Below are positions 2,984 to 32,625 of a stretch of DNA of 32,625 nucleotides, in pieces (the stretch's first letter is position 1; each line of letters opens with the position of its first letter). The notes beneath the pieces are model-generated. The model saw only the letters and a list, made by a program, of their open reading frames with translations, had not been told where the DNA came from and ran no database searches. This stretch comes from a virus (taxonomy: Duplodnaviria; Heunggongvirae; Uroviricota; Caudoviricetes). Where the stretch lies: positions 132,130 to 164,754 of IMG/VR virus record IMGVR_UViG_3300028601_000019. One strand, written 5' to 3'. The translations under genes and the position numbers were made by a program.

Positions 2984-3400
2984 TTAGATATCATCCCAAT
3001 CATCATCTTTAAGTCTTGGGATATCTTTTCTTTCCGTATGATCATGTCTTGATCTTCCACCAGAACCAAGTTTCCCAACATACTTTGTTCCTACTTCAGC
3101 AGCAAAAATAACTGCTAAAAGTTCAGTTAAATATGAGTCAACATGAGCACCAGTAACAACTTGAAAGATTATCAACATTTGAACAAAGATAAAAGAAATC
3201 CCAACCTTTGAAATTCTTCCATCATCTCTACAAATCATTTGATAAAAAGAGACTTTCCCTCTGTTTTTATAAATGGAAAAGAAAACAACCCCCAAAAATC
3301 CAAAAGATAATATAACAATAAGAATTTGATATATCATGAAGAAATCAGCAGGAATCAACATTTGTAAAAAACTTAGAAGTCAAGCAAATTTTTCTCCCAT
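2984..3400 (-). CDS. holin-like membrane protein; in-frame TGA (Trp) at codon 7
   Basis: ATG at 3400 overlaps the endolysin TAA (TAATG) with GGAG SD; reads MGEKFA*LLSFLQMLIP in frame into the tracked ORF; 2-3 TM segments and charged tail. Holin call is inferred from position and topology. Confidence 0.6.
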
Positions 3401-3966
3401 TACAATTTCTCCACATCTCTCCTACACCATTGGATTCTATTAAGCCACCCTTTAATGAATCTATTTTGTGAAGGATTGTTTTGAACTATTTTGAGAAAAA
3501 AGTTCTTTCTCTTTTCAAGAAAAATATCAATGAATTTACTTTCATCTGCTTCTTGTAAAGCGTTGAATGTATTCTTTCCATATGCCCTATCGAACACTAA
3601 ATTATATCCCATCTGAATAAGTGTCTTTTGAAGAAGGCCAGTAGCATTTTTTAATCCATGATTAACAATGGCATCAAAGAAAATAAAAGCCTTCTTATCA
3701 GAATCTAGTTTATCTAATCATGCAATATCCCAAAAATACTCTTTATAAACTTCCAATGCTTTTTCAGAATCTAGAAGTTTGATATCTTCCTTTGTAATCT
3801 GCCCATCATTATCAAGATCAAAAAGATCTAAGTCATTTGTTCCTTTTGCAAAATTAATTGATATCCCGAACTTTGTTGCCCCACCAGCATCTTCTGGAAT
3901 GTCAGTAAAAATATCAAACCCTTCATATTTTAGTGTGTAAACTATTGATTTTTTAAATTCGGCCAT
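3400..3966 (-). CDS. endolysin, glycoside hydrolase 108 + PG-binding_3 type; one in-frame TGA (3718-3720)
   Basis: EG...EDAGGATKFGI, FDAIVNHG, LLQKTL, FIKGWLNRI. Tracked ORFs 3718..3966 and 3400..3612 are the same frame joined through YFWDIA*LDKL. Confidence 0.9.
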
Positions 3967-4008: not shown

Positions 4009-4257
4009 TTAAAAACACTCTACTCCACCACCCTTTGAGCTAATAATTTGTTTTGGATTTCCATCTTTATCCATTACAAATTTATACCCACCAATGCATT
4101 CAAAAGAAGGTTTATCAACATTTCTCGACTTTTGTATTTGTTCTCTTCTCCAATTTGGATCTTTATATTTCATATATTGTGGATATGCTATCGCACATAA
4201 CATTCCTATAATAGCAATAATTATCAAAAGCTCAATAAGTGTGAATCCATTTTTCAT
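4009..4257 (-). CDS. type IV pilin-like protein (prepilin N-terminal cleavage/methylation motif)
   Basis: MKNG|FTLIELLIIIAIIGMLCAIAYPQY; C-terminal Cys pair. Confidence 0.85.
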   Translation of the reverse strand: MKNGFTLIELLIIIAIIGMLCAIAYPQYMKYKDPNWRREQIQKSRNVDKPSFECIGGYKFVMDKDGNPKQIISSKGGGVECF

Positions 4258-4260
4258 AAT

Positions 4261-4554
4261 CTACTCAATCCAAATTTTTTTAAGCTTGTCAATATCAACA
4301 CTGGCTTGTTTAAATGCTTCCTTAATCTTACTATAAACATAATTTGTTTCTACTAAAATATATCCATTTTCTGTGTCCCACGTTCTCCCATTATCACCCC
4401 AATTACCTTCATATTCTGTTCCTTTAAGCTCTTTTTCTAAAGCATCAAGTTCCTCCATAACATCATTAAAATGTTTGGGTGATTCAAATTGAGATTCATG
4501 AACAACAAAAGAACTGCTTGAACTATTTGAAACAAAACAATGTCTAGTTTTCAC
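4261..4554 (-). CDS. FVSNSSSSSF-motif protein (paralog 3)
   Basis: GTG at 4554 with GGAGG SD gives (M)KTRHCFVSNSSSSSF. Confidence 0.8.
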   Translation of the reverse strand: MKTRHCFVSNSSSSSFVVHESQFESPKHFNDVMEELDALEKELKGTEYEGNWGDNGRTWDTENGYILVETNYVYSKIKEAFKQASVDIDKLKKIWIE

Positions 4555-26109: not shown

Positions 26110-27495
26110 CTAACCCCCAAAGTTAAAATTTTCTGAAAGGTAATAAAGAATTTCTTCCTTATCATTAATAAGATATTTATCATAAACAGCTTCAAGTGTA
26201 AACCTCAAAGCGTCACCAACTATTCTCCCCGGCCTCAAATTAAATCTTTCAATCAAATCATTTCCATTAACTTTCAAATCTTTGATTGAAAAAACGGAAT
26301 CTTCTTTAGTAGTGAAAAGTTCTTCATATGTCAAAAGAATATTTTTAATCTCACCAAATTTAAAATTGGGTTTGTTAAGATTTCCTGCCCTATCTGCAAG
26401 CTTCAATCTTGTATGAGCACGATAGTTAATTCCATGCTCTTGAAAAGCTCTGATCATCTTCCTAACGCTCTTTTCCCCGCCATGAGTATTATTTCTCATG
26501 TGAAGTTTTACATAAGCAGCAATCTTATCAATGATTTCATTAGAAAACTTAAGATCTTTAAGTTCCTTTCTAACTATTTTTTCCCCAACATATTCATGAC
26601 CAATGAAAGTTCTTTCAACTTTATCATACACATGATACTTTCCAATATCATGAAGATAACCAGAAAGTTTCAAAACAGGACATCTTGTTGAAATGAAGTC
26701 ACCAGCAATCATCATGTGTTGAAACAAATCTTCCTTATGATGTGGTCCACCATCATGAAATACACATCTATCAAGAGTAGGAAAGATATCCTTTAGTAGT
26801 CCACAATCCAAAAGAACTGTAAAAAACCAAGAAGCTTTTTTAATCTTCATTGCCTTAAGAATCTCTTTAGAAATCCTTTCTTTGGCAATGTATTGGAACA
26901 AATGTATAGATTCTCTAATTGCTCTTTCAGTTTCAAAAGACAAAACAGCATTCATCTTTGCAGCGAACCTTGCAACACGAATCATTCTATTTGGATCTTC
27001 CTTAATGCGTTCAAAAGGATCACCAACAAAAGAAATGAGGTTTTGATTTATATGATTTCTTCCATTAAAAGGATCAACAATTTTTCCATCATTCTTACTA
27101 ACATTATACGCCAAAGCTGATATAGTTAAATCACGTCTAGCCAAATCCTCGGTTATTGTTTCACAAAACGTTATATTGACATCTTTATTGTTACCATTTT
27201 TAGCATAATGATCACCTCTAAATGTCGCTATTTCAATACCATCACATATTATTATCCCAAAAGATTTTCCAACTTCATCTATTTTGGAAGCGGGTAACTC
27301 TTTACTTAAAATATGTTTTATTTCTTCTGGATGAAGATTTGTTGCTATGTCATAATCGTTTGGTTTTATGCCAACTATAAAATCTCTAACCGCACCACCA
27401 ACCACATATACCTCTTCACTATATTTAGAAAGAGCATTAATTATAATCTTCTCTTTTTTAGGGATTGTGTAGTAAAAAGTTTTAAAATCTGTCAT
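26110..27495 (-). CDS. cca: CCA-adding tRNA nucleotidyltransferase with HD domain
   Basis: YVVGGAVRD, DYDIAT, EIATFR, EDLARRDLTI, EDPNRMIR, ERI, LHDIGK. Confidence 0.9.
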   Translation of the reverse strand: MTDFKTFYYTIPKKEKIIINALSKYSEEVYVVGGAVRDFIVGIKPNDYDIATNLHPEEIKHILSKELPASKIDEVGKSFGIIICDGIEIATFRGDHYAKNGNNKDVNITFCETITEDLARRDLTISALAYNVSKNDGKIVDPFNGRNHINQNLISFVGDPFERIKEDPNRMIRVARFAAKMNAVLSFETERAIRESIHLFQYIAKERISKEILKAMKIKKASWFFTVLLDCGLLKDIFPTLDRCVFHDGGPHHKEDLFQHMMIAGDFISTRCPVLKLSGYLHDIGKYHVYDKVERTFIGHEYVGEKIVRKELKDLKFSNEIIDKIAAYVKLHMRNNTHGGEKSVRKMIRAFQEHGINYRAHTRLKLADRAGNLNKPNFKFGEIKNILLTYEELFTTKEDSVFSIKDLKVNGNDLIERFNLRPGRIVGDALRFTLEAVYDKYLINDKEEILYYLSENFNFGG

Positions 27496-27518
27496 AATTT
27501 AAACCCCTAAATTATTTT

Positions 27519-27571
27519 TATAAATAGTTATTATAAACGGTGTAAGAACAATTGGTAGTTGTTCTTACACC
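27519..27571 (+). promoter_or_regulatory. late promoter followed by a 15-bp hairpin in the HNH leader
   Basis: TATAAATA 27519-27526; GGTGTAAGAACAATT-GGT-AGTTGTTCTTACACC 27539-27571; AGGAG SD downstream. Confidence 0.7.
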
Positions 27572-27602
27572 TAAACACAACTTTGTATAGGAGTACAAAA
27601 TC

Positions 27603-28646
27603 ATGTCTATAGATATTTATTCAATTCTTTCATCAATTCCACACAATCCGCATTACTTAGAAAGATATATCAAATTCATCAAAGGATGTAAACAGAAAAA
27701 TCTCATTCTTGAGGGGTATTCTGAATATCACCATATTTGCCCAAGAAGTCTATTTCCTAAATATGAATCTTTATCAAAGAACAGATGAAATGGCATACAT
27801 TTAACAGCAAGACAACATTTCATTGCTCATTGGATATTGTGAAAAACTTACAAATCTGCAAAAATGTGCTATGCTTTTATGATGATGTGTAATTTTAAAA
27901 ATCATAAAATATCTTCAGTGGTTTATGAAAAGTTGAAAATTAATAACTCGTTGCATACTTCTAAAAGAACTTCTGGCGAAAATAATCCTATGCATGGAAA
28001 GAATCATTCAAATGAAACTAAACAAAAAATTAGTAAAAGCAGATTAGAAGTTATATTGATAAATAATATACAAATTACAAAAGCCAAATTTTATCGTTCA
28101 ACTTGGGAATATTCTGATGAGTATCTACGAAAATTATCTATCAGAATGTCTGGGTATAACAACCCATCAAAAAATCCAAATATTCTTCAAAAAATTAGAA
28201 ATACCAAATCATCAACTTTTATTGATGGGAAAAATTTGGACTCGATCGGCACTGAACGAGCAGCCGATACTATGAAAAAAGAATTTATAAATGAATCTGG
28301 TGAACACACAACAATATATAAAGAAAATGGCAAAAAACTTTCTAATACTTTGTTACAGATTGAAAGTAATGGAAAAACAAAGGCATATAACAAAAACAAA
28401 TTAATCCATGAAAAATTAAGACAAAAAGGTAAATGATATAAAGTAAAAAACGTATTTGATTCAACATATGAAGAAATTTTGGCTGCGGCAGAAGTTAGAA
28501 ATATTAGTCCTGGACTCGAAAAATGCACAAAAGAAAAATATTTAGGAAAATCTGAATATGGTAAAACTATGTTTAGAATTAAAAATAAAGAACATCTTAT
28601 AGGATTATATGTGGAATTAATAGAAGATCCAAGTATTTTGTGTTAA
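27603..28646 (+). CDS. HNH homing endonuclease with NUMOD3-like motif (347 aa), three in-frame TGA
   Basis: EYHHICPRS...NR*NGIHLTARQHFIAHWIL*KTY; GENNPMHGKNHSNETKQKIS; KGK*YKV; one frame from ATG 27603 to TAA 28646. Confidence 0.88.
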
Positions 28647-28935
28647 TTGTTTCTGCATATTCAATTACACAGTTCTTATCAGAGTTTCCAAAGTAATGAT
28701 CTTTTCTATAGGTAGCAACTTCAATTTCACCTACACGAACAACCTTAAAAGCTTCACCACAATAAACAACCTTATGAGAAGTTTTGAAAATTTCAAAAAT
28801 CTCTTCGGGTTTTGCATTGGTTGTAATGTCATAATCGTCAGGAATGATGCCCATGATTTCATCACGAACACAACCGCCAACGTAATAACATTCAAATCCT
28901 GCTTCTATGATCTTCTGTGTAATTTCTTTATGCAT
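28647..28935 (-). pseudogene. 5' fragment of a second, divergent CCA-adding enzyme truncated at the HNH gene boundary
   Basis: YYVGGCVRD, DYDITT, EVATYRKDHY; similarity to the full copy ends at YAETI, at the HNH stop codon, just before the EDLxRRD motif. Confidence 0.8.
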
Positions 28936-29134
28936 TAAGGGTTCCTATCGTCCTCTACAGCGTTGGCTTCTCTTTTTTCTACCCACGCAATAAATTCTAC
29001 AAGGTTCATTGTACCATCAACAATATCAGCATAAATCTCAACCAATTCCATATCCATAATATACCTCTATTGGTTATATTAGTGTTTTGATGATTAAGAA
29101 ATATCAAAATTTTGAAATTATGTAAACACCTATT

Positions 29135-29347
29135 TTAATAATCTATTGCCGACCTCAAATACTGCCCTATATGTTGTTTACTAATTTCTTCCTTCATAGA
29201 AGTTCTAAATTTATATTCACTTGTAAAAAATTTTTCTTCCTCAGTGTAAATATTAATAACTTTGAACCATTCTTCAACTTCTCCATGATTTCCTTTCTGT
29301 CGAAAATGAGTAAAAACACAATCGCCTAATCTAAATGATTTTAACAT
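29135..29347 (-). CDS. hypothetical protein
   Basis: GGAG SD; plausible composition. Confidence 0.65.
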   Translation of the reverse strand: MLKSFRLGDCVFTHFRQKGNHGEVEEWFKVINIYTEEEKFFTSEYKFRTSMKEEISKQHIGQYLRSAIDY

Positions 29348-29442
29348 ATTTTACTCCAAATCAAAATATTCTTTAGATTCATTTTTCTTTGAAGAACATT
29401 GATGTTTTAATGAATTTTTCATTGACTTCCTCTTAATTTGAA

Positions 29443-30723
29443 ATTTAGTCAAAAACAAAATTATTTTTCTATAAATAGATATATAATATTAAAATTAGGT
29501 TGTAAACAAATGATTAGATCATCCAAGCACATTTTGAAGTATCAGACTGGTTCCAAGACGAAAGTCTTGAACCAGCTCTTTGACGACTTCAGAACAGACT
29601 TGTCTTGGTACATTGATCTGATCATTTCTGGAAAATTGCCACTCACCAAGTTTATGTCTTCCAAGGACCTGCCTTCAGGGATCATTTCTCATTCCCAATG
29701 GAAACAAATTCTATACAAGACAGCATCTGAAATAGTCAGGTCTCAATACAAACAAGCATCTAATAGACGATTCAAGCACTACAAGAAACTATTTCATAAG
29801 TGTATTACTGCAAATAAACATTGTTCTTTCACTGGCAAAAGATTTAGTGAATTGAACCTCAAGCCAATTCATCAATCAAAATTCTTTAGTAAGCCAGATT
29901 TGAAGAATTTTTCAATCACACTAGATTCAAGACTGATTGACTTTCAATATGGTCTGCATTTCGATGAATTTGTAAGAATCAAGACTCCATTGTTTCACGA
30001 GCATAAGAAACGTGCCATTACAATCAATATTCCAATTAAACATCATAAGCATAGTAGAAAATTCGATTCTTGGGAAAGAAAGAACTCAGTTCGATTGACA
30101 CTAAAGAATGGGGTCATGAATCTTGAATTGATCTATGAGAAAGATGCACCAGCACTAAAGACTCAGGGCTCTGTTCTTGGAATTGATCAAGGCTACAAGA
30201 AACTAATGTCATGTTCTGATGGAACATTTCTGGACTCCGAGATGGAATCAATCTATAAATTCATTTCAAACAAAAAACAAGGCTCCAAATCCTTCAAGAG
30301 AGCGCTGGTTCATAGAACAAATGAAACGAATCGAATTTGCAATTCACTAGATCTTTCTGGTGTCAAAGAGCTTGTGGTCGAAGACCTCAAGAACCTAAAA
30401 CATAAGACAAAATTGTCAACAAATTTTATGAACAAGATGCAGCGCTGGGTTTACCCAGCAGTATTAAGCAAATTGGAATCCTTGGCTGAAATGAACGGTG
30501 TTCATTTCACTAAAGTGAATCCTGCTTATACTTCGCAGACGTGTTCTAATTGCGGATGTGTGGACCCTGAGTCTCGCCAAGGCGAAGACTTCAGGTGTCT
30601 TCACTGTGGCCATGAAATTGATGCTGACTGAAATGCATCAATCAACATTGCCCGTTTGGGAATTTATAGTTCCCAAAGTCCAAAAAGCTAATTTCATTGT
30701 TCTTCATTGAAATTAGTAACTAT
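29443..30723 (+). mobile_element. non-autonomous TnpB-only element (IS200/IS605- or IS607-derived)
   Basis: No transposase; opposite strand to flanking genes; 3' hairpin CTAATTTCA/TGAAATTAG; removing 29443-30723 restores a 54-aa minus-strand ORF. Ends are inferred. Confidence 0.7.
29510..30691 (+). CDS. tnpB: RNA-guided endonuclease TnpB (393 aa), one in-frame TGA
   Basis: RuvC-I LGIDQG, RuvC-II VVEDL, PAYTSQTCSNCG, CLHCG, RuvC-III DAD*NASINI; TATAAATA at 29470-29477. Confidence 0.92.
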
Positions 30724-30810
30724 ATGCACATGCAGGGCAATCAATTTCTAGCAATGCTATTTCTTCTACAACATCTTCAATGTAGTCGTTTATCATAATG
30801 CTTCTCCAAT

Positions 30811-30837
30811 AAAAAGAAGGGGAACTTAATCCCCTTC
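30811..30837 (-). terminator. intrinsic terminator
   Basis: GAAGGGGA / TCCCCTTC stem plus T5 on the minus strand. Confidence 0.7.
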
Positions 30838-30839
30838 CA

Positions 30840-31322
30840 TTAACGAATCTTTACCAAAACTCTTACATGAAGTCTCTGGATATTATATCCACCGGCAAGA
30901 ATTGTTTCTATTTCGATGTACTTTGTTCCCTTATCTGTGTTGATGATATAAGTTCCATTATAACCATCAGAAGTCTGACTCCACTTTTCTTCAAGAACCT
31001 CAGTTACTTCTACCTTGGAAAGCTTGTTTGCAATTGAAAGATTTCTCTTCTTTGCTGTTACTTCACAATTCTTGGTCATCATCTCAAGAATATCTGCTTC
31101 AGATCTTCCATCAATCATATTGTACCAACCCTTACCACCAGCAATAGCATGAAGCTTTTCATACTTCTTCCAAAGATTCATGCCCTTAACTTCATCAGAA
31201 GCATAAAAACTTCTAATAGCATCTCGGCGTTCAAGGATCCATCTCTTAGAATCTTCGAGAATCTTTTCATCGATAGGAGCAAGGATTTCTTCAAGCTTTG
31301 TAATGATGGAGTTAGTAGACAT
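30840..31322 (-). CDS. conserved-looking phage early protein of unknown function
   Basis: C-terminal IETILAGGYNIQRLHVRVLVK; follows promoter copy 4. Confidence 0.8.
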   Translation of the reverse strand: MSTNSIITKLEEILAPIDEKILEDSKRWILERRDAIRSFYASDEVKGMNLWKKYEKLHAIAGGKGWYNMIDGRSEADILEMMTKNCEVTAKKRNLSIANKLSKVEVTEVLEEKWSQTSDGYNGTYIINTDKGTKYIEIETILAGGYNIQRLHVRVLVKIR

Positions 31323-31329
31323 TTTGTTT

Positions 31330-31390
31330 TCCTTGGTTATTTTGTTGTTGTGTTAAGATCAGAATATAAAAACAACCAAGGAATGTACAC
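31330..31390 (-). promoter_or_regulatory. early-type promoter with conserved leader (copy 4)
   Basis: GTGTACA-N17-TATTCT-GATCTTAACACAACAACAA. Confidence 0.7.
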
Positions 31391-31408
31391 TACTTTTTTA
31401 ATTAAATT

Positions 31409-32625
31409 TTAACTTTTGTTCTTTTTGTAGTAGATGTGGTCCTTAATTTTTTGTTTACAATAGTTTAAATTGTAGTCCTCACCGTCTGAAGATCAAATTT
31501 TTATTAAATAAAATCCTCTATTTATAGCATGAGCAGTCTTTTTCATATCTTTGTGATACACGGTATTAGAATCTTCTTTTGAGAACGGAGATTTCCACAT
31601 ATCCCATTTTTCTTTGTCTTCTTTTAACCACTTCGGGTTTGGATGAAAGGCCTCCCCATTATATTCTATAATGATTTTGAATTTTGGAATAGTGAAATCG
31701 TAAAAATATATTTCTTGATCCCGTATAAACCACTCCGTACTTCCCTTTATTCCCACATAAATTTCATCAAATGTACAAATTTCTTCTTCTAACAACCAAT
31801 CCATTAATGGAAAGAACACATTCATTGATTCCTTTGATGCATCATTGAAGTTTACTTGTGATTTTTCTATTCATAAAAAGTATTTTTCTTTACCTTCCTT
31901 CTCACCATACTTATCTATGAAAAAATTTAGATCATGTGAACACCCATCACAGTACTTTTTATATTTTTCTTTACCTTCCTTCTCACCATATCTTTTAATA
32001 AAATTCTCTTGTGTGTTTCCATAACTTTTACAATTTTTATTGTATAATTCTGTTCCTTTATCTTCACCATATTTGTTAATATAGTACTCAAGATTCCCAT
32101 TGCCTTTAGTGTTTTTGGATATATTTTCACATCTTTTATTATATAAGTTCACCCCTTCTTCTTCTCCATATCTGGCAATAAAGGACTCCTTAGAGGTTGA
32201 AGATTTTTTACAAATTTCTATATATTTTTTAGTCCCTTCTTCTTCACCAAGTTTTTCAATTTGGTATTCAAGAGTGCCCTTTCCCTTGCGACCTTTTGAT
32301 ACATTTTCAGAAAATGTATCAAAACGTATAGTACCCTCTTCCTCTCCATATTTTTTAATGAAGTTTTCTAAAGATGGACAGGGCTTTCCTTTAACAGATT
32401 TAGAAATATTTTTCTTTCTTTCTAAATATAATCTATTTCCTTCTTCTTTGCCATATCTAATTTCATAAAACTCTATTGTTGATACTTTAGTGTTATTACA
32501 TATTTTGCAAATTTTTTTATATTCGAAATTCTTTGGATCAAATTCTGTAAAATTTTCACAGTTGCTCATTGAGCAACAATTTTCATCATGTTTCAAAATA
32601 AAAGCATCATAATACTCTTTTAATG
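31409..32625 (-). CDS. Hef-like homing endonuclease with KYGEEEG repeats and C-terminal Vsr/DUF559-like domain; 5' end outside window; two in-frame TGA
   Basis: About seven (K/R)YGxEEG repeats; YFL*IEKS joins tracked ORFs 31871..32596 and 31493..31825; SKES, FYDFTI..IIIEYNGEAFH, D..K, IKI*SSD to TAA at 31409. Confidence 0.85.

Follow-up and report, generated by a model that had tools for sequence, protein, structure and literature searches.

Does a TGA codon that directly follows the last catalytic aspartate of a phage tnpB gene mark a dying transposon, or is it an ordinary sense codon in an element that continues to spread? This question is raised by a locus of the metagenomic virus record IMGVR_UViG_3300028601_000019 (G000; 164,754 b, ~69% complete), of which we analysed positions 132130–164754, a stretch of 32,625 nucleotides hereafter called the window; positions refer to the window unless another record or contig is named. 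The phage is T4-like, its habitat is that of landfill/wastewater-type metagenomes, and TGA is read as tryptophan throughout its genome. The locus is occupied by a whole IS200/IS605-type element of 1354 bp with TnpB as its only protein of the family (29370–30723, + strand), delimited as the block common to three copies in this genome and five more. We favour, at a probability of roughly 0.7, the reading that it is an ordinary TnpB-only IS200/IS605 element, intact and present in several copies, whose probable mode of spread is an RNA-guided cut at empty sites in related phages.

The tnpB gene and its TGA codon

The tnpB coding sequence spans 29510–30691 (+) and comprises 393 codons if its single in-frame TGA is read through. 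The product matches Pfam PF07282 (75.7 bits, cut-off 26.3), NCBIfam guided_TnpB (NF040570; 102 bits, cut-off 100), TIGR01766 (38.4, cut-off 32) and, over residues 66–386, PHROG 506, annotated as 'transposase'. In a family alignment of nine sequences, among them three close copies and, at 43–53% identity, five relatives, the RuvC residues D226 (in GIDQG; codon at 30185–30187), E291 (30380–30382) and D373 (30626–30628, all on the + strand) are invariant down to 43% identity, as are the cysteines C345, C348, C363 and C366 of two CxxC pairs. The E, zinc-finger and D motifs also align with solved Cas12f and TnpB-like chains; the alignment of RuvC-I to these chains is weak, and the best match to a solved structure is partial (E 3.9e-15, residues 288–382). 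Searches of the 164,754-b, ~69% complete record for a Y1 transposase (PF01797) and for a serine recombinase (PF00239) found neither, and their controls were positive. The original prediction, made from the letters of the window, of a TnpB gene without TnpA and with all three RuvC acidic residues in place is therefore borne out. The missing TnpA does not exclude membership of the family, because TnpB-only subgroups are known, as the consulted part of PMC2853527 describes.

The TGA is codon 374 (30629–30631, +); it stands directly after D-A-D, and the frame continues N-A-S-I-N-I. We compared it across eight distinct close copies, namely the three of this genome, including the one in the window (c1), and five from related contigs, where they sit at other sites. 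The genomic copies share 93–94% protein identity and have exactly one TGA each. A scan of viral contigs returned 13 loci, six of them close (two distinct sequences) and seven distant, and a pattern scan of metagenomes added three further close copies, every one with the TGA. The codon is thus kept in 12/12 close loci, which represent the eight distinct sequences. Of the seven distant loci, six encode Y, L, T or E there, and the seventh, a fragment, encodes Y. After the last Asp, the solved Cas12f and TnpB-like chains have F or Y, so that an aromatic Trp fits, and one copy (L040) has a second TGA at Trp188, which is otherwise invariant in the family. The gene around the codon is under strong constraint: the 28 pairs of distinct copies give dS values of 0.53–0.81, dN of 0.02–0.07 and dN/dS (omega) of 0.03–0.10, there is not one indel over 1182 nt, and codons 375–381, past the TGA, show synonymous differences only. 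Since the TGA is kept, indels are absent and dN/dS is 0.03–0.10, we conclude that the gene is functional and not decaying.

The same reading of TGA applies to the whole genome. Greedy coverage by open reading frames (ORFs) rises from 78.3% under code 11 to 91.3% with TGA as sense, against 82.4% and 86.5% when TAG and TAA, respectively, are read as sense as controls, and the number of ORFs of at least 300 aa rises from 29 to 51. When 26 TGA-fused ORFs were compared with PHROGs, 17 had a match spanning at least one TGA, two had a non-spanning match and seven had none. The spanning matches include the terminase large subunit, portal, tail sheath, baseplate hub and wedge, and also a gp46-like exonuclease, two helicases, a gp55-like late sigma factor, endolysin and PhoH; examples of loci with TGA as Trp are L041:6448–8439, L041:10664–12214, L042:540–2471 and window 3400–3966. 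The sheath gene has four TGAs, and the residues opposite them in a solved sheath are W, F, R and Y. TGA therefore encodes tryptophan genome-wide. The DAD-TGA-NASINI stretch that the original prediction had singled out is in frame and its TGA is a sense codon, in line with the rest of the genome; the recoding stands, and what falls is its restriction to the RuvC-III region.

The consequence for annotation is direct: code-11 gene callers truncate this TnpB because its 'stop' is a normal Trp codon, and a code-11 annotation would fragment about one third of the phage genes, for example terminase, portal, sheath, baseplate and endolysin. Other explanations of the codon were tried and dropped. TGA as a normal stop, with which 44 of 165 code-11 ORFs seem to end, proved an artefact in the PHROG scan of fused ORFs; selenocysteine and code 25 (Gly) do not agree with the alignment of TGA to Trp or aromatic residues; and a readthrough signal or attenuator specific to nucleases was set aside, as structural genes also use TGA.

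The use of TGA is bimodal. Among 65 ORFs of at least 250 aa, 26 have no TGA against 101 TGG, the DNA polymerase with 11 TGG being one of them, and the remaining ORFs mix both codons. Genes for gp32-like, helicase and exonuclease proteins carry TGA too, so the codon is no strict marker of late genes. The part consulted of the preprint of Borges et al. (10.1101/2021.08.26.457843) reports the same split of TGA between gene classes in TGA-recoded phages and an intron endonuclease that prefers TGA. Within tnpB itself, TGA374 does not stand out statistically: one of four Trp columns is polymorphic among the copies, compared with 28 of 65 columns of purine-ending Lys, Glu and Gln codons overall and 4 of 12 in the region of TGA374, and a special conservation of the codon is not statistically significant.

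Ends, flanking motif and empty sites

Obligate mobile element-guided activity (OMEGA) systems such as that of ISDra2 have characteristic element ends, a target-adjacent motif (TAM) and a right-end RNA (reRNA, or omega-RNA). We delimited the element by comparing its copies. On the right, all eight distinct copies diverge directly past ...AACTAT, at 30723/30724, and contigs of other contexts break away at 30723 (two loose ends in X1, five in X3). On the left, four X3 contigs of other contexts break away at 29372, and positions 29373–29442 are conserved in copies at unrelated sites, so that this stretch belongs to the element. The alignment of copies gives a non-coding left end (LE) at 29370–29509 (+) with TTCATT/AATGAA hairpin motifs. 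The right end (RE) finishes in a terminal hairpin at 30688–30716 (+), with a 12-bp stem and one mismatch, followed by TAACTAT. The DNA fold of this hairpin has a z-score of −3.5; those of the LE reach −0.1 in c1 and −1.9 in L038. The hairpin motifs of both ends are kept down to 46% protein identity, in the relative L014, whose LE also has an AATGAA...TTCATT-type hairpin.

Immediately 5' of c1 lies AATAT (29365–29369, +), and AATAT or AGTAT closes the left flank in seven cases, namely c1, c3, L004, L014, L038, L040 and the consensus of the X3 contigs; the motif is ambiguous at c2. The decisive comparison comes from the sister copy L038, whose target site is empty in this genome (2763–2787, − strand). 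There, ...AATAT is joined directly to the sequence that follows ...AACTAT in L038, with a 20/20 match to the right flank of that copy. The insertion of L038 created no target duplication, and its junction carries a 3-nt (TAT) ambiguity. The target is preceded by ACTAT at occupied sites and by AATAT at the empty site. The flanks point to A(A/G)TAT as a candidate TAM, and ACTAT at the element's own right end may be non-permissive and would then protect occupied sites. The 20 nt past the right end of c1 (30724–30743, +, the length being assumed) are the predicted guide-encoding flank, and hence the predicted target of this copy; the guide flank of each copy of this genome occurs once in the genome.

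These boundaries agree in part with those first proposed, in which 29442 was joined to 30724 so as to restore an ORF, with TTGAA (29438–29442) as TAM. The right boundary and the guide start at 30724 hold, as the divergence of all eight copies there shows. The left junction does not, for the empty site of L038 places the insertion ~70 nt further left, after A(A/G)TAT; checked against empty-site boundaries, the proposal thus matches on the right side and fails on the left. The reconstructed target ORF accordingly contains element sequence in its middle, and TTGAA is an internal, copy-specific variant where other copies read TTATAA. Joining 29369 to 30724, which is the predicted empty allele of c1, gives instead a short minus-strand ORF that enters the start of the next gene.

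Two further candidates were discarded on the way. The L004 site was rejected as a clean empty site, as gene content differs there in this genome, and a left-end pattern scan of viral contigs returned 17 loci, of which four were the L004-type copy and 13 chance matches. The LE of all full copies also contains a 17-codon ORF (29373–29432, −) with a strong Shine-Dalgarno-like AGAGGAA upstream; its residues vary non-synonymously among the copies, and it may be incidental to the hairpins.

Predicted RNA, expression and spread

The 3' end of the element carries a conserved, covarying RNA fold. In the predicted omega-RNA scaffold (30494–30723, +), which extends across the last part of tnpB into the right end, the single-sequence fold has a minimum free energy of −83.2 kcal/mol (z −5.9), and the RNAalifold consensus of the last 230 nt contains 75 pairs, ten of them with compensatory changes that come mostly from L014. 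Third-position diversity falls from ~0.3 to ~0.15 across the final ~280 nt of tnpB, TGA374 sits in a hairpin loop, and the terminal hairpin, TAACTAT and the guide follow one another in that order. A scan with Rfam returned tRNAs only and no omega-RNA family. Contigs of the X20 metatranscriptome touch the element and are uninformative on transcripts. The arrangement suggests that an RNA would be made from the 3' end of the element and would guide cleavage.

Upstream of the gene, 32 nt before its ATG, lies TATAAATA (29470–29477, +), a T4-type late-promoter-like motif; a motif of the late-promoter type, as had been proposed in front of tnpB, is thus present. We take TATAAATA to be the T4 late promoter. 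In the genome, 23 of its 44 occurrences fall within the 8.7% of non-ORF space, and many lie 16–51 nt upstream of ORFs, including those of sheath, endolysin and the TnpB copies c1 and c2. Five of the eight distinct copies have retained the motif, and the genome encodes a gp55-like late sigma factor. Judging from the motif, tnpB would be transcribed late, from TATAAATA.

How might the element spread? TnpB would load the predicted RNA of the element's 3' end, and the complex would likely cut unoccupied insertion sites in co-infecting relatives; recombinational repair of the cut site would then copy the element in, and a first insertion at a new site would need TnpA supplied in trans. Occupied sites have unoccupied counterparts: those of L038 and L006 are empty in this genome, the latter around 59487–59511 of G000, and G001 has no copy at the c2 site, which in the present genome lies immediately past terL. 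The L038 target together with AATAT is matched 20/20 only where the allele is empty, the occupied allele having ACTAT. A TnpA-independent, 'non-restorative' homing into orthologous empty sites is discussed in the consulted part of PMC13565253. Near the element, one X3 contig joins 28935 to 30804 with eight other letters in between; the relative behind this joint is without three small ORFs and the TnpB element.

Several observations weigh against guided spread or against its details. The TAM call is based on seven flanks and a single exact empty site, whose junction is ambiguous by 3 nt, and the LE of c1 is degenerate, with a 2-nt deletion in its tip and a disrupted hairpin 1. No empty allele of c1, that is, no joint of 29369 to 30724, was found in four runs or in the relatives compared, where L020 is too diverged at this locus and G001 is not syntenic there. 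At the c2 site of G001 the right flank has diverged, so that it is not a matching target. The copies L006 and L039 are without the outer LE, and L006 is flanked by a ~45-nt duplication of a late-promoter region with TATAAATA, which indicates ordinary recombination as the mode of spread and not guided homing or transposition; in this case, unequal recombination with the promoter-like stretch in the LE is suggested. L006 has also changed its ATG to ACG, its right-end hairpin is shortened and its ends are eroded (L006:2840–3000 and 4170–4300). TnpA was not found in the record, which bears on the route to new sites. Regarding the decoding of TGA, the record contains seven tRNAs, none with the anticodon TCA, and no suppressor tRNA was detected in this ~69% complete sequence with ARAGORN (default, 95% and 85%) or Rfam, relaxed calls being junk-level; the search of the decoding machinery covered tRNAs, and none was aimed at TrpRS or a release factor.

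Three other explanations have to be weighed against an intact, homing element. Were TGA374 a nonsense mutation, tnpB would be a decaying pseudogene and the relic of a selfish element. The code-11 ORF does end one codon past the catalytic Asp, in distant relatives the position is taken by Y, L, T or E and never by a stop, and some copies have decayed (L006, with its lost ATG and eroded ends, and L016, which is fragmented). We nevertheless regard this explanation as very improbable, for the same TGA stands in all eight distinct copies over the divergence and purifying selection given above with zero indels, TGA is a sense codon within terminase, portal, sheath and other genes, and 7/7 in-frame stops across three nuclease gene families are TGA. 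A second explanation accepts that the gene is intact and assigns the TnpB-RNA complex another role, as an anti-competitor weapon or an exapted guide-dependent regulator that does not use guided cleavage for its own spread, the copies moving by general recombination. The absence of TnpA from the record, the origin of L006 and L039 by recombination at late-promoter-like stretches and the position of the c2 guide on the 3' end of terL, a conserved gene region, speak for it. Nuclease-dead exapted relatives of TnpB lack an intact catalytic triad, and here the triad is intact and invariant; each guide, moreover, is the copy's own flank and unique in the genome, the conservation of LE and RE hairpin motifs to 46% protein identity fits continued transposon-type ends, and the L038/G000 pair has exactly the geometry expected of homing. 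We hold this role to be improbable, if less so than decay.

The remaining explanation concerns the TGA itself, which might be a selected gate: full-length, active TnpB would appear only when TGA is decoded in the infected cell, at a late stage, and elsewhere the truncated form would do no harm. It draws on the bimodal use of TGA, in which structural and lysis genes take the codon freely and 26 of 65 long ORFs are free of it, on the same split and the TGA-preferring intron endonuclease reported in the part of the Borges et al. preprint at hand, on TATAAATA upstream of tnpB and on the invariance of TGA374 in eight copies. That invariance is unexceptional, though, when set beside the polymorphism of the Trp and comparison columns; TGA is found as well in gp32-like, helicase and exonuclease genes, a suppressor tRNA was not found in the ~69% complete record, and the host may natively use code 4. 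We consider a selected gate unlikely. The same doubt attaches to its extension, a code-locked, phage-to-phage RNA-guided gene drive in which full-length TnpB would be made only after the phage has switched the cell to TGA as Trp; if this speculative scheme were true, the nuclease would fire late, while co-infecting genomes replicate and recombine, and would be inert in standard-code cells. The reading of an ordinary TnpB-only element that homes into empty sites remains the one we prefer, and the locus then provides a natural, sequence-defined case for TnpA-independent homing of TnpB between phages: the ends are precise, the candidate TAM A(A/G)TAT can be compared with ACTAT at the element's own end, the eight copies supply natural guides, and an empty target that matches perfectly lies in the same genome.

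Neighbouring genes and comparison with known systems

Two other genes of the window encode nuclease-like proteins and contain TGA. An HNH/NUMOD homing-endonuclease gene with three in-frame TGAs lies at 27603–28646 (+; PHROG 655 over residues 4–279; NUMOD3), with TATAAATA 76 nt upstream. A second nuclease-like gene, with two in-frame TGAs, occupies 31409–32596 (−) and matches PHROG 22677 over residues 295–397, a match that spans TGA377; its product consists of about eight KYGEEEG-type repeats and then an endonuclease-like C-terminal domain, and it matches no Pfam family. The selfish nucleases of this phage, TnpB and two homing-endonuclease-like genes, are thus written in the recoded alphabet. 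The original prediction that TnpB is coded like the other nucleases of the phage holds insofar as those of the window carry TGA at Trp positions; the trait is not peculiar to nucleases, since structural, lysis and several replication genes share it.

The HNH gene is flanked by a full-length gene for a CCA-adding enzyme (26110–27495, −) and by a second, partial copy of the head domain of that enzyme, 112 codons long (28597–28935, −). In L020, from a 75%-related phage, this locus has a single intact CCA-adding enzyme gene, and the duplicate around the HNH gene looks like a footprint of endonuclease-driven recombination. Elsewhere in the genome, the terminase large subunit (L041:6448–8439, −) has an apparent insert of ~150 residues right after the P-loop-like CRQSGK; beginning with Cys and ending in ...HN before S/T, the insert appears mini-intein-like, and no Pfam intein family matched it at E≤0.001. 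Past the DnaB_C match (164–348) of a DnaB-like helicase ORF (L046:10844–12172, +), the C-terminal stretch starts ...TTRCLEIGSS, where an intein or some other insert seems to begin.

A megablast of window positions 27000–32625 against GenBank phages gave no match, and the closest protein matches among GenBank phages are to Desulfovibrio/Nitratidesulfovibrio phage records, at 46% identity. TnpB genes also occur in crAss-like phages, according to the part of PMC11054128 consulted, and in the extracts that our literature search returned we found no description of a TnpB with a reassigned stop codon.

The element resembles IS200/IS605 TnpB systems (OMEGA, for example ISDra2) in the RuvC D-E-D triad and the zinc-finger TNB domain of its protein, in a predicted structured RNA that spans the 3' terminus of the gene and the right end, with the flank beyond as guide, in duplication-free insertion 3' of a short motif and in the subterminal hairpins at its ends. 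Unlike ISDra2-type elements, it has no TnpA on its contig, its motif is A(A/G)TAT and not TTGAT, it is present in three copies in a virulent-type T4-like phage, and one of its Trp codons is TGA. The properties of IS200/IS605 TnpB and of the omega-RNA/reRNA are summarised in PMC13565253, of which an extract was used. TnpB-only elements in T4-like phages have a precedent in ISCaje1–3 of the Campylobacter phages CP220 and CPt10 (PMC2853527, 2010), where, in the text consulted, related isoforms likewise sit at different places in related phages. The same text does not describe CP220 and CPt10 as recoded; the present phage is, and for its element the two ends, the side of the TAM and an empty site have been determined. 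None of the 194 records of GenBank phages with a match to the TnpB protein at E≤1e-10 belongs to a Campylobacter phage.

With regard to the genetic code, the phage is comparable to Agate and Jade, as portrayed in the available part of Borges et al.: TGA aligns with Trp, it occurs frequently in genes for structure and lysis, and a large part of the replication machinery does without it; one of the TGA-preferring genes of Agate encodes a homing endonuclease. It departs from both in being T4-like and from landfill/wastewater-type samples, not gut, which extends TGA recoding to such phages, in yielding no suppressor tRNA from its ~69% complete record, in carrying TGA in several replication and recombination genes, and in having a selfish nuclease that is predicted to be RNA-guided. 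Finally, the proposed mode of spread parallels that of the Seg and Mob endonucleases of T-even phages as outlined in the extract of PMC13565253, with a predicted cutting of the gene-less allele in a co-infecting relative, a copying-in by repair and a late-type promoter. It would differ from them in its predicted recognition, which relies on an RNA guide and a short motif instead of on protein, and the element has precise transposon-type ends in place of fuzzy co-conversion tracts.

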